Positions 1 to 38,372 of a stretch of DNA of 38,372 nucleotides are shown here, piece by piece. Positions within the stretch are counted from its first letter, which is position 1. Each line of letters starts with the position of its first letter. This DNA is from a virus. Both the position numbers and the translations under genes were made by a program. A model generated the notes under the pieces. The model had not been told where the DNA came from and made no database searches. It saw only the letters and a list, made by a program, of their open reading frames with translations. The DNA lies in the UHGV virus genome UHGV-0143060. One strand, given 5' to 3'.

Positions 1-1128
1 CCATTTGTAAGCGTGGATTTTGTACCTCGTAATAATTGGTTCTATTTTAACATAAAAGCTAATACTAAAAAAGAAAGCCTTTTATCTTCTACTGATTTAA
101 CAACAGCTTTGTTGGCGGCTTTTACTAAAATAACAACTGTAGTTAATGAGATTAACCATTTTTGCCCATTAGATGTGTCAGTTGTTATCCCTGTTCATAA
201 TCGTGAAAAACTTATTCTTAAATGCATTAACTCACTTAATAACCAAACAATTAATAAGGATCGCTTTGAGGTTATTTTTGTCGATGATTGTTCAAGTGAC
301 AAAAGCATTACTGCTATAGAATATAATATATCACCGGATATTAACTACAGAATTATTCGCCGAGAAATTGGTTCAGGTAACGCTTCAACCCCGAGAAATG
401 AGGGGATAAAAGCAGCAAAAGGACGTTATATTTTCTTCATGGATTCCGATGACTATATTGACGAAACTCTTCTTGAGAGAGGGGTTCATATTGCTGATAA
501 AAATAATAGTGATATTGTTTACTTCAAAATTGCATCAGATGGTAATCGCGAGGTGCCTATCCGTCCATACAAGGTGAAAATTGTAGATAAGGCAGATATA
601 ACCAAGCATCACCTCTTGCGGTCGTTAACTATTTTCAAATTCTTCCGAAGAAATATGCTTAAAGAGCATAACATTCTCTTCAACCCAGCTATCACCGTAG
701 CTGAAGATAAAATATTTATGGTTCAATCTCTATCTGTAGCAAACAATATATCTATTCTTGCTGACAAAGATTATTATCATTTAACATTCCATGGTAATGG
801 TCATTTATCAAGGCAAAAATTTCCTCTTGAAGATAGACACTTCATTCTTAACTCGGTTATTAACACGATTTACTTTTGCGGAAAAACTAACGAAGAAAAG
901 GCCAAGCTTTACAATGCGTGGCTGGTGATATGCCTTGAAATGATGGAAAAGGTATGTGGTAAAGCAGGTGGCAACGAGCAAAAGAAAAGGATGTTCTTTA
1001 ACATGCTCTCAACCACTTTCAACATCCGCTCAGATTTAGTAAATCAGGATATGATTTATACCCCTCAGCGTAAGTTCATCAAACCTTTTTTACAAAATAA
1101 TTATGAAGGTTTTATAGCTGAAATTTAA
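1..1128 (+). CDS. Family 2 glycosyltransferase (cargo/moron); frame is open to the window edge so the 5' end may be incomplete
   Basis: GT2 signature VVIPVHNREKLILKCINSLNNQT...FEVIFVDDCSSDKS and DXD-like FFMDSDDYIDE; visibly AT-rich; no stop between position 1 and the GTG at 13; about 55 codons precede the GT2 core. Confidence 0.7.
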   Translation, partial: PFVSVDFVPRNNWFYFNIKANTKKESLLSSTDLTTALLAAFTKITTVVNEINHFCPLDVSVVIPVHNREKLILKCINSLNNQTINKDRFEVIFVDDCSSDKSITAIEYNISPDINYRIIRREIGSGNASTPRNEGIKAAKGRYIFFMDSDDYIDETLLERGVHIADKNNSDIVYFKIASDGNREVPIRPYKVKIVDKADITKHHLLRSLTIFKFFRRNMLKEHNILFNPAITVAEDKIFMVQSLSVANNISILADKDYYHLTFHGNGHLSRQKFPLEDRHFILNSVINTIYFCGKTNEEKAKLYNAWLVICLEMMEKVCGKAGGNEQKKRMFFNMLSTTFNIRSDLVNQDMIYTPQRKFIKPFLQNNYEGFIAEI

Positions 1129-1134
1129 AACATT

Positions 1135-1153
1135 GCCCAGCATGTAGCTGGGC
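1135..1153. terminator. Inverted-repeat hairpin between convergent GT2 gene and tailspike (possible bidirectional terminator, weak T-tracts)
   Basis: GCCCAGC-ATGTA-GCTGGGC perfect 7-bp stem seen in sequence. Confidence 0.35.
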
Positions 1154-1174
1154 ATACATTAAAAGTACCACATA

Positions 1175-3820
1175 TCAACCATTTAGTGTTAACTTTAATA
1201 ATTTTTCCAGATTATTAATCTTTGATGTGATATTGGCAATATCCTGCTCATGGTGATGATATAATGCGCTCATTGCCAGAAACATTAACTCGTCATAGCG
1301 CACTGATAATTTTCTTCCTGATTCCACAATTAACCTTACTTCACCAGTTTCATACTCTTCTTCCTCTGTGATTTCATCATACTGACCAGACTCTTCATCA
1401 ATTAAAATTTTTCTGGTCACATTTCTTGTTGCATAGACTTTCTCATACTCATCATCCCACTCTTCATAGCAAAGAACCCCATAAGAAAATGCATCAAGCC
1501 CCTCAGATTCAAAGATGGATTGTATATCTTGCGCAATTACACCGATATGCTCACGCGCTGACAAGCCTTTTTCTTTTACAGCATCCTTCATTCTGAATTT
1601 TTTTATCAGCGGGTAAATAGCCATTCCAACCCGTAGTTCTGCATCAGATAATGAAGCTTCATCCTGCTTGTAATTTCTGTCGCTGGTTACAATGGGGCTA
1701 TTATTTATATACAGGTTTCTGACAGTATTCGACTGTGTACCAATATCATAAAGATTTGAACCTGATGGTCGAAAATGACCTAATTCTGTTAATACCCATC
1801 TGTCACGCAAGCCGTCAATCTCTCCCATGGTTCCAAAGTAGAAAGCAACCGGGATATTGTCTCCGGAAGGATTACCTCTTGTGACGCATTTAATGTGTGC
1901 GCATTGCACAGCCTTACTACCTGTATCACCGGCCCATACATGAGTACCCAATACATCCCCTGTCTGCAGAGCTCCAAAATTATCAGTTGATACAACACCA
2001 GAGCGAGACTTATACATTATTGCTCTTGGTCCTTCTGCGGTGTCTGACTGATGCCGGGAAACCCATGAGTTGCTCATCCCTTCCGTGCCGTTTGAAGCTA
2101 ACTGCATTCCACCAGTAATTCCGCCATCAAGAAACAATATAGGGTTATCCCGGTTAGTTTGAATACCCTTTCTTGTTGGCCAAACTGTCCAGTGAAAAGT
2201 ATCATTGTATTCCCTTACTCCATATTTGAACTCCGGGGAGCCAGAACTATGAAGACCAGTATTACTGGATACAGAACGGCTTGCTTTGCTTTGCACTACC
2301 GAACCAGACCTGCCTATATCAAACAGATATACATTTTTCCCGTTCTCAGCAACTCCTTTATATGTGCATATTCCCAGCGTTAAAACATACCCACTCTCCG
2401 TTCTAATTACTGTTAGGGACTCAGGCTCTTTATAAACAGGAGTTCCTGTACTGTCAGATTTTGCTTCATCATCACCAACAGTTGAAATATCTACTCGCTC
2501 AATAAACCTGCCTGTTAAGTCAAATACGTAAATATAATTAGTCATGCCAACATACGTATGTGACTCAAGTATGTAAATGTATGCCCCATCGCAAGCAATT
2601 GATTGGGTAAATGCTTCTTGTGATGGTTTTTGATAGCTAAACTCAACTAAATAATCATCACTATAATCAGTTTTATGAGATCTGTTATTCCACATGCTGA
2701 CTATGTCGAAAACACGAACCGTGCAGGTAATTCCATCCGATGAAATTTTCTTGGCAAGTAGATAGTTTTCACAACTTGATACAGTTGGAGTAGAGCTTGC
2801 GCTCATTCCATCATAGGGGAACAACTTCCAGGTGATAAAACCTTCAGATACCCCGTTGGTTGTCCCTGTGTAACTCAATATATTTTCCATCGAAATACAT
2901 TGATTGGCGGCATCGGTTCCATAAGGCTTCGATGTCCACAGCACGACAGTACCATCAGGATTATGATGCAATCCAAGCCCCTGATGCCCAAGTTCAGTAG
3001 AACGGGTTCTGTCGTATCTTCCTAGTTCACCAGAATTCGTCACGTCAAAGGCATTAATGCAATAACCGTATGCTGTGGTAGATGATAAAGTAAAAATCTT
3101 GTCGTTAATTTCATCATAACAACACCCCTGAATGACCGCATATAAACCACCCGCACCTTCAGTTCTGCGCAACGTGTGTCTGGTGTTATATACTTTTGGC
3201 ATTCCGGAAAATATCAATGGCTCTCTTTTATCTCTTAATTTAAGATCACCAATCGCAATTCGTTTACTGCCATCACGAATAAAAGAACCATTTATATAGC
3301 TATTTTCAATAAAACTTTTAGTAACAAAAAATGCTCTTCCACTTAAATCAATAACCCTATTTTTTATATCCATTTCCAACGCGACAAATGCTTCAGTATC
3401 ATCGCTAATCCCATCCCCCTTAGCTCCAAAATAAAGAGGAGACATATTTAGCATATCATTTGATAATACTTTTTGTTTAAACTGATCCGGGTCATACTTC
3501 AGCACATTAGGAAAATAGAACTGCTGTGCACCATACGCATCATAAACAGCCATAGAATGGCCTTGCACGGTAACGAATTTGGCAATCTGTCCGTTATATA
3601 CTGGATACCCTGCGGCATTGATGACGATTGGCTGTGCAACATGAACGTGAGAACCATCTTCGTTCTCTACATAAACCTGAATCTGGTTTTCAGGATTTAC
3701 CGGGTCAGTGTCAATTTTACCGATATAAATTTTGCCATTGGCTACGGCTTTAAAAGAGCGGGCCATAGTGAAGAGTTGCGAAGGCATACTCACTACAACA
3801 TTGGCTGTAATGTCTGTCAT
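1175..3820 (-). CDS. Tailspike: P22 gp9-like head-binding N-terminus, beta-helix/pectate-lyase-like receptor-degrading body, C-terminal S74-type intramolecular chaperone domain
   Basis: First ~110 aa ([34 protein letters not shown]...) match P22 gp9 as recalled; [16 protein letters not shown] motif; C-terminal SDAELR...GVIAQDIQ resembles endosialidase-type chaperone domains. Confidence 0.85.
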
Positions 3821-5143: not shown

Positions 5144-5395
5144 ATGGCTAGAGATGATCCGCACTTTAACTTCCGTATGCCTATGGAAGTAAGGGAGAAA
5201 TTAAAATTCAGGGCGGAGGCGAATGGGAGATCAATGAACTCCGAGTTGTTACAAATCGTCCAAGATGCTCTATCAAAACCATCGCCTGTGACTGGATATC
5301 GTGACGATGCAGAACGACTCGCTGATGAGCAGTCAGATCTTGTTAAGAAGATGGTGTTTGATACGCTGAAGGATTTGTACAAAAAACCCACCTGA
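5144..5395 (+). CDS. mnt: Mnt repressor (83 aa)
   Basis: MARDDPHFNFRMPMEVREKLKFRAEANGRSMNSELLQIVQDAL... matches P22 Mnt. Confidence 0.9.
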   Translation: MARDDPHFNFRMPMEVREKLKFRAEANGRSMNSELLQIVQDALSKPSPVTGYRDDAERLADEQSDLVKKMVFDTLKDLYKKPT

Positions 5396-5410
5396 CGGTG
5401 GGTTTTATTA
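5380..5410. terminator. Bidirectional rho-independent terminator (mnt on +, moron operon on -)
   Basis: ACCCACC-TGAC-GGTGGGT hairpin flanked by an A-run upstream and a T-run downstream. Confidence 0.65.
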
Positions 5411-5827
5411 GTGCTTGTATAGGTTGAACTCTCTATCAAGCCATATAACAAAAAATGTCGATCCAAGACGATAACCAACCATGGCTTTCAAATCATCAAA
5501 TCTAAAAGCCAAGAAATGATCTACGTCTTCCGTTATATGACTGGGGATACCTGCTTTAATTGCACCCCTTGCAATCTTCTCAAATCCAAGCTTATGCCTA
5601 CCTTGCTGCTTAATCTCTGCCCATGTTAGTTGACTTAATCTGTATAATTTATCAGCTAAGCCAGCTTTCTCATCTTTTTGGCATTTCGTTATGCAGTGAG
5701 AGCTTTGGATGTAACAGAATGAAAATTTCGGTTTCTTTTGATCTGAATTCCCCCCTGACTGCGGCCCTAACTTTAACTTACCTGTAGATTCAGCAGGGGG
5801 GATAATCCTTTTAGATTTTCTTGCCAT
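5408..5827 (-). CDS. Uncharacterised 139-aa protein coupled to the Panacea-domain gene; candidate toxin partner (PanT-like)
   Basis: ATG at 5827 lies 4 nt after the upstream stop; K/R-rich N-terminus, CYIQSSHCITKC cluster, C-terminus GYRLGSTFFVIWLDREFNLYKH; AT-rich. The tabulated ORF begins at 5902 and would overlap the upstream gene. Confidence 0.55.
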   Translation of the reverse strand: MARKSKRIIPPAESTGKLKLGPQSGGNSDQKKPKFSFCYIQSSHCITKCQKDEKAGLADKLYRLSQLTWAEIKQQGRHKLGFEKIARGAIKAGIPSHITEDVDHFLAFRFDDLKAMVGYRLGSTFFVIWLDREFNLYKH

Positions 5828-5831
5828 CTCG

Positions 5832-6275
5832 TTAGTTAATCCGAGTTGCAAAGTACTCTGCCATCTCCTTAGAGCTAATTTCAGAACCACCAACACCCTC
5901 AATATAGTTTGATCTCCATGGTGACTCTTCGTGTGTCATGTTCCTCAGTTTCCAAGCAGAAAATTGCCCAAAAACATCCCAGACTTCTTCTAATAGCTCT
6001 AACTGTTCTTCGCTGAATTTTTCAGCATCAAAAGACTCTGGAGAAGGGATAGCGCCATTACCATATTGTTTATAACGGCGATAAAGCTCAGGGACAACAG
6101 GGCCATGCATCCAAGCTTCCATCTTATTCTGAAAAAGAGGCTCGCCAAGCAACGCCAATGAAAAACCCTGAGCATAGTAAACAAGCTTTTGTAATTTTAA
6201 ATTAGAGATTGTGTCACCGCTATCCTCGTCACACCGCGACAGGAAGTAGTCGGCGACATCAAAACAAGTAAGCAT
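5832..6275 (-). CDS. Panacea-domain (DUF4065, SocA/PanA-like) protein, putative antitoxin
   Basis: DVADYFL...NLKLQKLVYYAQGFSLALLGEPLFQNKMEAWMHGPVVPELYRRY matches the Panacea core as recalled; GGAGG RBS 7 nt before the ATG at 6275. Confidence 0.7.
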   Translation of the reverse strand: MLTCFDVADYFLSRCDEDSGDTISNLKLQKLVYYAQGFSLALLGEPLFQNKMEAWMHGPVVPELYRRYKQYGNGAIPSPESFDAEKFSEEQLELLEEVWDVFGQFSAWKLRNMTHEESPWRSNYIEGVGGSEISSKEMAEYFATRIN

Positions 6276-6485
6276 GAACACACCTCCATCTTGATAGCCA
6301 CAGCTAAGTATCCAACTATGTCAAATGTCATTTAATACTATAACAAAGCTATCAGCAATCCTTCGGAGGCTAACTTACAACCACTTTAGCGACATGTTTA
6401 AACCATTACGTTTCACATTTACTGCATTTTCGCCGAAGTTACCTATAAGGTAATGTCACATTTCCTGCAAGTTTCATGCAATGTT

Positions 6486-12117: not shown

Positions 12118-13535
12118 TACTCAATCCTTATCTGGCAACCAGACAGAGTGACAGGTGACTTCGTGATAACGCGCAATTTGAAGCCGACATTTTTCCTGAT
12201 GCGCCCGACTCGCTTCCACAAAACGCGTTTGTCGTAAACAAACGGTTCATTCTGCTCAAACATCTGCTCACGACCGTAATTGATGCCGTCAGTGGTAGCA
12301 GAGAGGAACAGGCGGTCAGCGTACTGCGCAACACCAGTTGACGATTCAACTTCAAGGTCAAACACTCTTGCGTTATCCGCTTTGAACAATGGAGTAAACA
12401 GCAGGTGTTCCTGTTGCTTGTCGTACTGGCTGCTGATATCGAACTGCAATTTACCGGTAACCGATTCCAGCTTATCGCCGCACGTTATCTGATTGCCTTC
12501 GTAAATGAAGTCGATAGCGCGGTACACATCGTCATACAGGCCTGTTTTCAGCACACACCATTGCGGACCATTAGCGCTTGAAGATGCGTCGTACACGAGT
12601 ACATGGCGCGGCAGGTGAATAATCAGCAACTCATGAGCATCAAACCGCAACGATTCCATCACGCCATCAGCCAGTTCATCAGCAGTGTAGGAGCGGAGGA
12701 TTTTCTCAATGCTCGCGCTGGCGATTGGTAACACCTGACCGGAGCCGATGATGTATACAGACGGCGCACCTGTTGCCGGATTGCTGATGAACGCATAAGA
12801 ATCAGCAAACGGCGTTTTGCAGTAAGTCCCGGCAATGCCTTTCTGCACCATCAGTGATGGCTGTGCGACATACAAAGCGGCACCAACGGTGGTTGCACCA
12901 GTCAGGGAGAAATATTCAATCGTCGATGAACCAAAGCAGACGATGAAGTCTCGCCATGTCCCGATACCGATGATGCCGTCAGGCTGAGACTCGGCACGAT
13001 ATTGTGCGCTGTAACGGTCAGGATGCGATTCGTCTTCAAGGTCAGTGATGAACCATGAATCAGTACCATCTTTTGACCACGCATAACGCCCACGTAAGCG
13101 CGTAATGTCACGAACCGAACCTAACTCATACTGCGTGAATCCGCTGTCTGTAGGCCAGTTTGAGACGGTTTTAACCGTGCCATCATAACGATACTCGACC
13201 AGTTGACCATTAACGCCTACAGCCTGAGATGTCCGACCATGCGCCATTGATACGCGACCACTTCCGGCGACGTCACCGACTTCGCTTTCGCCTTTGTAGA
13301 GCTTGCCACCACACACGCGATAGACAGCATTCTGCGCCATGTTGTACTCGACGCCTCGAGATACACCATTCACATCAGAACGTTTGGCAATGCCCGGGAA
13401 TGAGCGAAGATATCCGCTGCTGTTAAGGATTTCTTTGGGTGTAGCCAACATATTCACTGGCAGATAGTCGATATAGTCGGCGTTTCGGAAGTCTTTGCCG
13501 ACACCTTTCATGAGCGGAAGTTGCTGAATCGGCAT
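12117..13535 (-). CDS. Tail hub protein, P22 gp10-like
   Basis: 472 aa, same length and position as P22 gp10. Confidence 0.8.
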
Positions 13536-38065: not shown

Positions 38066-38125
38066 CCCGCCTCACACTCGATGAGGCATTTTCATTTATC
38101 AAGATATCCAGACCTACCGCAATAA

Positions 38126-38372
<247 letters not shown>

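Follow-up and report, generated by a model that had tools for sequence, protein, structure and literature searches.

A variable CCAG repeat sets the reading frame of a prophage-borne TarS/TarP-type glycosyltransferase gene that may modify an Escherichia coli capsule

What does a glycosyltransferase gene do at the very edge of a phage genome, with its reading frame still open at the first base? The viral genome UHGV-0143060, a stretch of 38,372 nucleotides that is referred to here in its entirety as the window, begins with such a gene on the plus strand, converging on the tailspike gene of the same phage. A preliminary description, made from the sequence alone, had suggested that this gene encodes a family 2 glycosyltransferase (GT2) in the position of the P22 gtr serotype-conversion operon, and that the enzyme modifies the surface polysaccharide targeted by the phage's own tailspike. 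We find that the window edge cuts the gene at a hypervariable (CCAG)n tract, which determines its reading frame, and that the encoded enzyme belongs with TarS, TarP and RmlT. With reasonable confidence, we read the locus as repeat-switched prophage cargo that most likely decorates a ribitol-phosphate capsule recognised by the tailspike.

A reading frame set by a repeat beyond the window edge

Frame 1 of the plus strand is open from base 1 and ends at a TAA at 1126-1128, giving 375 codons plus stop (1-1128); this is the 3' part of the phase-variable gene, read in its ON frame. The product matches Glycos_transf_2 (PF00535) over amino acids 60-220 (E=2.9e-31, 109.1 bits against a cut-off of 23.3). 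Its only Pfam matches are GT2 families, and no homology to NeuO was found. Both motifs named in the preliminary description are present, VSVVIPVHN at amino acids 59-67 (nucleotides 175-201) and DSDD at amino acids 148-151, the latter within the DXD motif MDSDDY (amino acids 147-152, nucleotides 439-456). A catalytic ED (amino acids 235-236) lies inside AEDKIF (amino acids 234-239), and it and DSDD are unchanged in an alignment of 28 homologues. The GT-A catalytic core spans 175-810 on the plus strand and includes PRN (391-399), DSDD (442-453), ED (703-708) and H..H.S (790-810), which correspond to essential residues of TarS. The reported AT-richness was borne out by a scan of GC content: 1-1128 has a GC fraction of 0.342, about 4.5 standard deviations below the remainder of the window, which in 1128-bp windows has a mean of 0.479 (standard deviation 0.03, minimum 0.40). 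The part of the tailspike outside its head-binding domain is also GC-poor (0.397).

Four complete Escherichia coli genomes contain the gene. In E. coli 'strain C' (NZ_CP029371) the order is argW tRNA, intS, about 900 bp, GT2, tailspike, ant and arc, and the roughly 900 bp upstream include an ATG with a GAGG ribosome-binding site, 53 codons and a perfect (CCAG)46 that ends where the window begins. The same flanks surround 69 CCAG copies in GMF054, the closest relative of the window, and 4 copies occupy the same site in an IMG/VR contig. The window gene shares 99.5% nucleotide identity with the strain C and GMF054 loci, and window positions 1-16 (ccatttgtaagcgtgg) match exactly what follows the 46, 69 and 4 units in strain C, GMF054 and the contig, respectively. 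Bases 1-3 (CCA, plus strand) are the last three bases of the tract; the remaining tract, the 53-codon leader, its ATG and the ribosome-binding site lie upstream of the window.

Since CCAG repeats translate as (PASQ)n in all three frames, n alone determines the frame downstream. In the window allele the leader joins the window open reading frame (ORF) at n mod 3 = 2, the ON state. The OFF-frame stop codons are TAA at 8-10 and TAA at 30-32 on the plus strand, where the leader ORFs of the relatives end, as ...SHL in strain C and the IMG/VR contig and as ...ICKRGFCTS in GMF054. The other two frames of the leader reach stops before the repeat (start codons were checked by eye), leaving a single start frame. 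A promoter scan returned sites no more often than in shuffled sequence, and the one 11/12 match, 235 bp upstream of the leader ATG, is not promoter evidence. The repeat switch, at the window edge, was invisible to the earlier reader of the window, which contains no further notable tandem repeat. Database proteins of the window allele are labelled 'partial' and share the same starting residue (P0001, 25 contigs), as expected if short-read assemblies, the contig of the window included, break at the tract.

The slot itself is a phage slot. The preliminary description had allowed that upstream sequence might place the gene in a host O-antigen or lipopolysaccharide (LPS) cluster; upstream in strain C is an argW-intS prophage context, and the gene is prophage cargo, not part of a host cluster. 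The comparison with a gtr position was apt, in that the K-12 prophage CPS-53 has gtrA-gtrB-gtrS in the corresponding slot, and phage CUS-3 has neuO there. The gtrA- or gtrB-like partners anticipated upstream did not appear: between intS and the tailspike, strain C has neither a gtrA-like nor a gtrC-like ORF, and the leader ATG and (CCAG)n were found instead. At the other end of the window, positions 38100-38372 hold a torI-like excisionase ORF and then what resembles the attR side of a prophage integrated at argW. The window therefore covers the prophage from the repeat to its far end, with int and the 5' part of the GT2 gene alone missing. When the gene was compared with the phage database by megablast, no match was obtained. 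A scan of genome contigs with the homologue P0003 found only remote GT2s of about 30% identity in unrelated phyla, and the E. coli species representative is without the gene.

Copy-number differences were measured on a sister allele, in addition to the two strains of the window allele (46 versus 69). The leader and the protein of the sister allele are 90% and 56% identical, respectively, to those of the window allele. It belongs to P2-like prophages, in which the tail sheath gene and the tail-fibre gene flank it; it was present in 29 genomes, E. coli B among them, and is ON at n mod 3 = 0. For E. coli B and its drug-selected derivatives, all from a single laboratory, the counts were 35, 35, 35, 35, 34, 34 and 45; E. 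coli B with three of the drug-selected derivatives (35 copies) and two further B derivatives (34) are OFF, and B-DolR (45) is ON. REL606 (7 copies), AS19 (10) and Z0117EC0062 (20) are OFF, as are the sister strains CFSAN061763 and CFSAN061768 (7 and 6). ATCC 11303 (21), PCP07014 (18), 21AH057 (60) and 4069 (66) are ON, and the sister strains CUVM3 and CPww7 (15 and 18) are both ON. Across the E. coli B lineage the counts are 7, 10, 21, 34, 35 and 45, and the highest among wild isolates is 66. Altogether 8 of 22 distinct tracts (36%) were ON. The states are visible in the annotation: RefSeq gives in-frame tracts as one gene of 1362-1623 bp and out-of-frame tracts as a 'hypothetical protein' plus a 370-aa GT2. 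In REL606 the (CCAG)7 tract lies at 2,103,891-2,103,918 in a P2-like prophage, within a GT2 gene that RefSeq splits in two.

Such a distribution could also arise if the gene were a decaying remnant, a pseudogene in which repeat variation is neutral noise. The majority of tracts are indeed out of frame, including all three of the window allele; an insertion sequence (IS) element cuts a repeat-free allele in CUVM3 and CPww7, and an allele in strain AST215 has a premature TAG. However, the ORF downstream of the tract is intact in all of the approximately 30 loci, and dN/dS is 0.16 against alleles 85% identical, with a range of 0.09-0.19. The 36% of tracts that are ON correspond to the one in three expected of a free-running switch and match functional neuO (PMC13001214), and the OFF tracts of the window allele are each one unit short of or beyond ON. 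We regard decay as very unlikely.

A teichoic-acid-type enzyme with an additional domain

The closest solved proteins by sequence are Staphylococcus aureus TarS (E=1.4e-39) and TarP (E=5e-33), followed by Listeria RmlT (phmmer, HMMER). The fold of an AlphaFold2 model gave the same set, TarS and TarP and then RmlT, with target-normalised TM-scores of 0.79-0.85 and a Foldseek E-value of 2e-26. All three of these enzymes glycosylate poly(ribitol phosphate) teichoic acid. TarS is inactivated by mutation of R75, D91, D93, D94, E177, D178, R206, H210 or S212 (PMC5156392). In an alignment made with the TarS structure 5tze, these essential residues fall on R191, D207, D209, D210, E294, D295, H323, H327 and S329 of P0003; the aligned positions are invariant in the family except S329, and R206 is replaced by His. 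By sequence and fold, the enzyme is a GT2 of the TarS/TarP/RmlT type. The resemblance extends to phages: among 50,697 phage records, the best relatives by tblastn are in Listeria phages and the tarP prophages of S. aureus, at 31-37% identity. It does not extend to the C-terminal trimerisation or carbohydrate-binding domain, as the protein ends after a helical extension. At the other end it has an extra N-terminal domain outside the region aligned with TarS and TarP (query 117-364, about 325/434 columns).

This assignment bears directly on the mechanism first suggested, Gtr-type serotype conversion, in which the GT2, like GtrB, would charge undecaprenyl phosphate with a sugar that is then transferred to O-antigen in the periplasm. 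The CPS-53 slot and membership in the GT2 family favour such a role. Against it, the match to K-12 GtrB (YfdH) is 26% identity over just 47 amino acids; the hydropathy maximum (19-aa) is 1.19, compared with 2.33 for GtrB, with no hydrophobic segment or membrane helices; no gtrA-like or gtrC-like ORF occurs between intS and the gene; and the nearest structures are soluble polymer-modifying enzymes. A GtrB-type enzyme was rejected on the grounds of the short match, the lack of membrane helices and the missing gtrA or gtrC partner, and we find the Gtr-type explanation scarcely plausible. The idea of lysogenic conversion was right in outline; its Gtr/O-antigen mechanism is rejected.

The N-terminal extension of about 55 residues that the preliminary description had called unusual is real coding sequence, with the frame open to base 1, and is not unusual: it is half of a conserved domain of about 110 amino acids, cut at the repeat. 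Window positions 1-171 (plus strand) encode the second half of this domain, comprising a pair of beta strands with a long linker helix, as delineated in an alignment of 28 members. This stretch is conserved at the protein level, with relatives 50-85% identical, and the full domain is shared by family members of 429-455 amino acids (P0003, P0004, P0011, P0005). The single-ORF relatives are either repeat-free (P0003, which is 85% identical, and P0013) or have short in-frame insertions (SQPASQPA in P0004, SQP in P0011). They read ...KFALDF-loop-VDFVLRNN..., the latter part being the N-terminus of the window product. In the AlphaFold2 model of P0003 (mean pLDDT 90.8), two helices at 5-24, five strands within 25-90 and a helix at 92-113 precede the GT-A core, and the repeat site falls in the loop at 54-61.

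The position of the repeat raises the question of whether the catalytic part might be expressed constitutively from an internal GTG at window position 13 or 172, with the repeat governing only an accessory N-terminal piece. The NCBI pipeline annotates in RefSeq a 371-aa product from the GTG at 13, and the Campylobacter and Psychrobacter homologues, TarS and TarP all begin just ahead of the VSVIVP motif. However, neither GTG is preceded by a Shine-Dalgarno-like sequence, and a start at 13 would halve the folded five-stranded domain of the P0003 model. Moreover, the accessory domain appears to be needed, because homologues that start at the core have it at the C-terminus instead. We consider internal initiation quite unlikely.

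Several alleles illustrate how the domain and the repeat site vary. The C-terminal location of the domain in the Campylobacter and Psychrobacter homologues (P0027, P0053) represents a permutation within one family. In the kps-locus allele of AST215 (locus L036, 7015-7170), ACC GCC AAC CAG ACA G occupies the position of the CCAG tract of the phage alleles; a site of this type is a possible ancestor of the repeat, a proto-repeat. This allele has its TAG stop at codon 17 and the remnant of a tail-fibre-assembly gene just upstream. In the pig isolates CUVM3 (locus L002, 10380-11950) and CPww7, a P22-like prophage carries the repeat-free allele broken by an IS3-family element after approximately codon 84, and both isolates also have an in-frame copy of the P2-type allele.

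The tailspike and the candidate acceptor

The tailspike gene occupies 1175-3820 on the minus strand, convergent with the GT2 gene as first described. Its 881-aa product combines a P22-type head-binding domain (amino acids 1-113), a beta-propeller receptor domain (approximately amino acids 230-520) and a Peptidase_S74 chaperone (amino acids 713-774), as delineated with the Pfam Head_binding and Peptidase_S74 matches and an AlphaFold2 model with a mean pLDDT of 64.7 (80-92 for residues 120-400). The best matches of the model in the PDB are receptor-binding proteins of the S. aureus phages phi11, 80alpha and P68 (E about 2e-13), which bind teichoic acid, and the next is the K1F endosialidase. This predicted likeness to staphylococcal teichoic-acid binders is suggestive and carries moderate weight. 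Between the two converging stop codons, positions 1134-1154 form a GC-rich hairpin whose stem has 8 pairs, 6 of them GC, and which on the minus strand has a T-rich tail. By consensus match only, it is likely a shared terminator of the GT2 and tailspike genes; it corresponds to positions 13134-13154 of the strain C locus.

The receptor domain is uncommon: the database has 13 relatives. As a separate observation, the domain (window 1601-3481, minus strand; P0121-P0133) is joined in different phages to five N-terminal anchors, namely the P22 head-binding domain PF09008, the endosialidase N-terminal extension PF12218, the T7 fibre N-terminus PF03906, PF18668 and PF21311, and so is a freely exchanged module. 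The GT2 appears to accompany it. In Leclercia sp. W6, a GT2 60% identical to that of the window converges on an S74 fibre with a receptor domain 74% identical, and the P2-type fibre beside the sister allele is related in its propeller region (25% over 211 amino acids, E=2e-6) and its S74 domain (31%). The Leclercia and P2-like pairs show the enzyme travelling, and diverging, together with the receptor domain, and the pairing fits a receptor-modifying role, in agreement with the earlier proposal that the enzyme acts on the receptor of the phage's own tailspike. It is conceivable, although we rate it somewhat below an even chance, that temperate P22-like and P2-like E. coli phages, which are unrelated morphotypes, share a mobile two-gene module, consisting of a repeat-switched TarP-like glycosyltransferase and a staphylococcal-type receptor domain, that is aimed at a ribitol-phosphate capsule.

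Where the homologues lie outside phages points to a candidate acceptor. They are found in ATP-binding cassette (ABC)-transporter (kps) capsule loci of Campylobacter coli and Psychrobacter immobilis and in a third E. coli allele, adjoining a bifunctional CDP-ribitol synthase and a TagF-like phosphotransferase; the third E. coli allele is also flanked by a tail-fibre-assembly remnant. Among genomes that carry the GT2, 20/32 have a CDP-ribitol synthase, against 196/5426 overall (3.6%). The capsule region of the E. coli B type was present in 18/32 carriers and 51/5426 genomes overall (Fisher p=5e-30; approximately 9e-12 after a rough collapse of lineages), and the AST215-type ribitol locus was present in a further two carriers. 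No association with the gene was seen for the K100-type ribitol capsule of ST131. In E. coli B itself, kps region 2 (REL606 3,020,551-3,026,778) encodes the TagF-like phosphotransferase and a TarI-like/SDR CDP-ribitol synthase that is split by IS1A; the teichoic-acid-like capsule locus of B and BL21 is therefore disabled.

A ribitol-phosphate capsule in all carriers was rejected as a hypothesis, 12/32 lacking the synthase when searched with a chimeric query. Either this capsule is not the sole acceptor, or the prophage often resides in hosts without the substrate of its enzyme. Because the association is incomplete, both in these 12/32 and in the K100 type, we put the odds that the acceptor is a ribitol-phosphate capsule at about even. 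The same switch and enzyme could act at the cytoplasmic face on another acceptor, such as an undecaprenyl-diphosphate-linked O-unit, the LPS core, enterobacterial common antigen or another capsule. This would account for the carriers without a CDP-ribitol synthase, three of them with ON alleles; the C-terminal halves of the alleles diverge strongly (56% identity), suggesting different acceptors, and a P22-type head-binding domain is usual on O-antigen-specific tailspikes. On the other hand, the B-type ribitol-phosphate kps region is strongly associated with the gene, all the non-phage homologues examined are in kps loci that include a CDP-ribitol synthase, and the enzyme and the tailspike both match the staphylococcal teichoic-acid system best in structure. 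We judge a different acceptor to be unlikely, though well within consideration. The O-antigen or LPS target had been assumed at the outset; the evidence leans, short of proof, to the ribitol-phosphate capsule.

Several points weigh against a switched, capsule-decorating enzyme as we read it. The CDP-ribitol synthase of E. coli B is split by IS1, and the 12/32 carriers without one detectable by blastn include GMF054 and three ON-allele strains. All three loci of the window allele are OFF (4, 46 and 69 copies), with no ON product found, and the window itself contains just 3 bases of the tract. The model of the tailspike is of moderate quality and the TM-scores of its matches are about 0.37. Repeat counts come from long-read assemblies and may be wrong by one unit. 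Finally, the tract in L048 (DETEC-P881, approximately 5200-5553) is interrupted, with runs of 32, 7, 6 and 29 units, and is nonetheless in frame with a 540-aa product; it is either degenerating or a long-read assembly error.

The data show the structure of the gene, the hypervariability of its repeat, the dependence of the frame on the repeat, the enzyme family and the genomic slot; from them we infer the donor sugar, the acceptor polymer and any change in phage adsorption. The gene, of about 430 codons plus repeat, is cargo of a CUS-3-like, P22-like prophage, between integrase and tailspike, with a perfect (CCAG)n inside its coding sequence at a surface loop of the predicted N-terminal domain. 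Replication slippage would alter n, and only one n in three fuses the ATG-bearing leader to the catalytic part, such that a population of lysogens would mix ON and OFF cells. When ON, the gene is predicted to yield an inverting GT-A enzyme of the TarS/TarP/RmlT type, soluble and cytoplasmic, whose most likely action is to attach a sugar to a ribitol-phosphate (teichoic-acid-like) kps polymer prior to export. Decoration would alter the structure recognised by the beta-propeller tailspike and by related phages, a role parallel to that of NeuO on the K1 capsule and of TarP on staphylococcal teichoic acid, and by analogy it may give the lysogen superinfection immunity.

Elsewhere in the window, the mnt-arc-ant immunity region contains a SocA/Panacea-domain antitoxin-like ORF (5832-6281, minus strand; PF13274, E=2e-24) and, overlapping it, a 164-aa ORF at 5408-5902 (minus strand) with no Pfam match. 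This pair (5408-6281) is a candidate toxin-antitoxin or defence cargo.

Parallels with known systems and what the locus may mean

The nearest precedent is a known one, NeuO of CUS-3. The backbone of the window is CUS-3-like (95.7% identity over 66% of the query), as are the slot between int and tailspike and the capsule-type tailspike with its S74 chaperone. In the CUS-3 record, neuO lies between int and the endosialidase tailspike and contains 19 AAGACTC repeats. This heptanucleotide repeat lies in the 5' coding region in 2-93 copies and is ON only at multiples of three, and O-acetylation by NeuO, a hexapeptide-repeat acetyltransferase (PMC3046976), protects against K1 phages (PMC3046976, PMC13001214). 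About 34% of neuO alleles in complete genomes are ON (PMC13001214). The two switches thus share a 5' coding repeat with a unit length that is not a multiple of three, a wide range of copies (2-93 in neuO, 4-69 here), a single ON frame with about one third of genomes ON, and translation of the repeat into a flexible peptide (PMC3046976, PMC13001214). NeuO is a left-handed beta-helix acetyltransferase, whereas the present enzyme is a GT-A glycosyltransferase; the unit is AAGACTC in one and CCAG in the other. The neuO repeat begins 2 nt after the start codon, whereas the CCAG repeat is 53 codons in, in a loop of a folded domain, and neuO is on the tailspike strand, whereas the GT2 gene converges on the tailspike. 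NeuO modifies polysialic acid and the GT2 probably a ribitol-phosphate polymer, and, unlike neuO, the GT2 cassette is also found on P2-like prophages and in kps loci. We therefore describe the system as NeuO-type phase-variable lysogenic conversion with a different enzyme, a different repeat and likely a different polymer.

For the enzyme, the closest parallels are TarP, a prophage-encoded wall-teichoic-acid N-acetylglucosamine (GlcNAc) transferase of S. aureus that is, like the present gene, carried by a temperate phage, and its paralogue TarS. TarP/TarS provide the nearest solved structure and the nearest relative in the phage database, with the same GT-A core plus helical extension and with metal-binding, donor-binding and base residues kept. 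TarP reportedly modifies a polyol-phosphate surface polymer from the cytoplasmic side, as Gerlach and colleagues are said to have described in 2018. Identity to TarP and TarS is about 27-31%, and their C-terminal trimerisation domain contrasts with the unrelated domain of about 110 amino acids in the present family, which is N-terminal in enterobacteria. TarP has no repeat switch, and in a Gram-negative host the polymer would be an exported capsule rather than a wall-linked teichoic acid.

For the repeat, the parallel is with Haemophilus influenzae lic1A, lic2A and lgtC, in which tetranucleotide repeats in the 5' coding region encode a tetrapeptide run and slip between ON and OFF. These are likewise sugar-decoration genes, but they are chromosomal rather than phage-borne, belong to other glycosyltransferase families (GT25, GT8) and target lipo-oligosaccharide. 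The GtrABC systems of P22, SfV and CPS-53 resemble the present locus as lysogenic-conversion cargo adjoining int and tail-fibre genes, and Salmonella gtr operons are phase-variable. They differ in being three-protein, lipid-carrier-dependent, periplasmic systems switched by Dam/OxyR epigenetics and not by repeats, and they have no sequence relationship to the window gene past the GT2 superfamily. To our knowledge, E. coli is not noted for long tetranucleotide tracts. Our literature search found no account of the window gene or its CCAG repeat, the matches to CCAG being primers, and a 2026 capsule-typing paper mentions neither prophages nor phase variation.

The practical consequences begin with annotation, since short-read assemblies appear to break at the repeat, and in RefSeq the gene is divided between a 'hypothetical protein' and a truncated GT2. 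The locus is also a fast-mutating marker in the widely used B strains; if our reading is true, the tract at REL606 2,103,891-2,103,918 is a hypermutable contingency locus that has gone unnoticed in E. coli B. The gene offers a testable role for a K-type that is still uncharacterised and whose genes E. coli B and BL21 possess in IS1-disrupted form, and phase-variable capsule decoration bears on phage therapy and K-antigen vaccines. The proposal would add a second repeat-switched capsule modification by an E. coli prophage after NeuO, with a different mechanism, and would suggest that such switching is a general strategy of capsule-specific temperate phages and not an oddity of K1. It ties E. 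coli capsule biology to staphylococcal teichoic-acid glycosylation, for both the enzyme and the phage receptor-binding protein, and, if true, it would constitute a Gram-negative counterpart of the arms race between teichoic-acid glycosylation and phage receptors in S. aureus.

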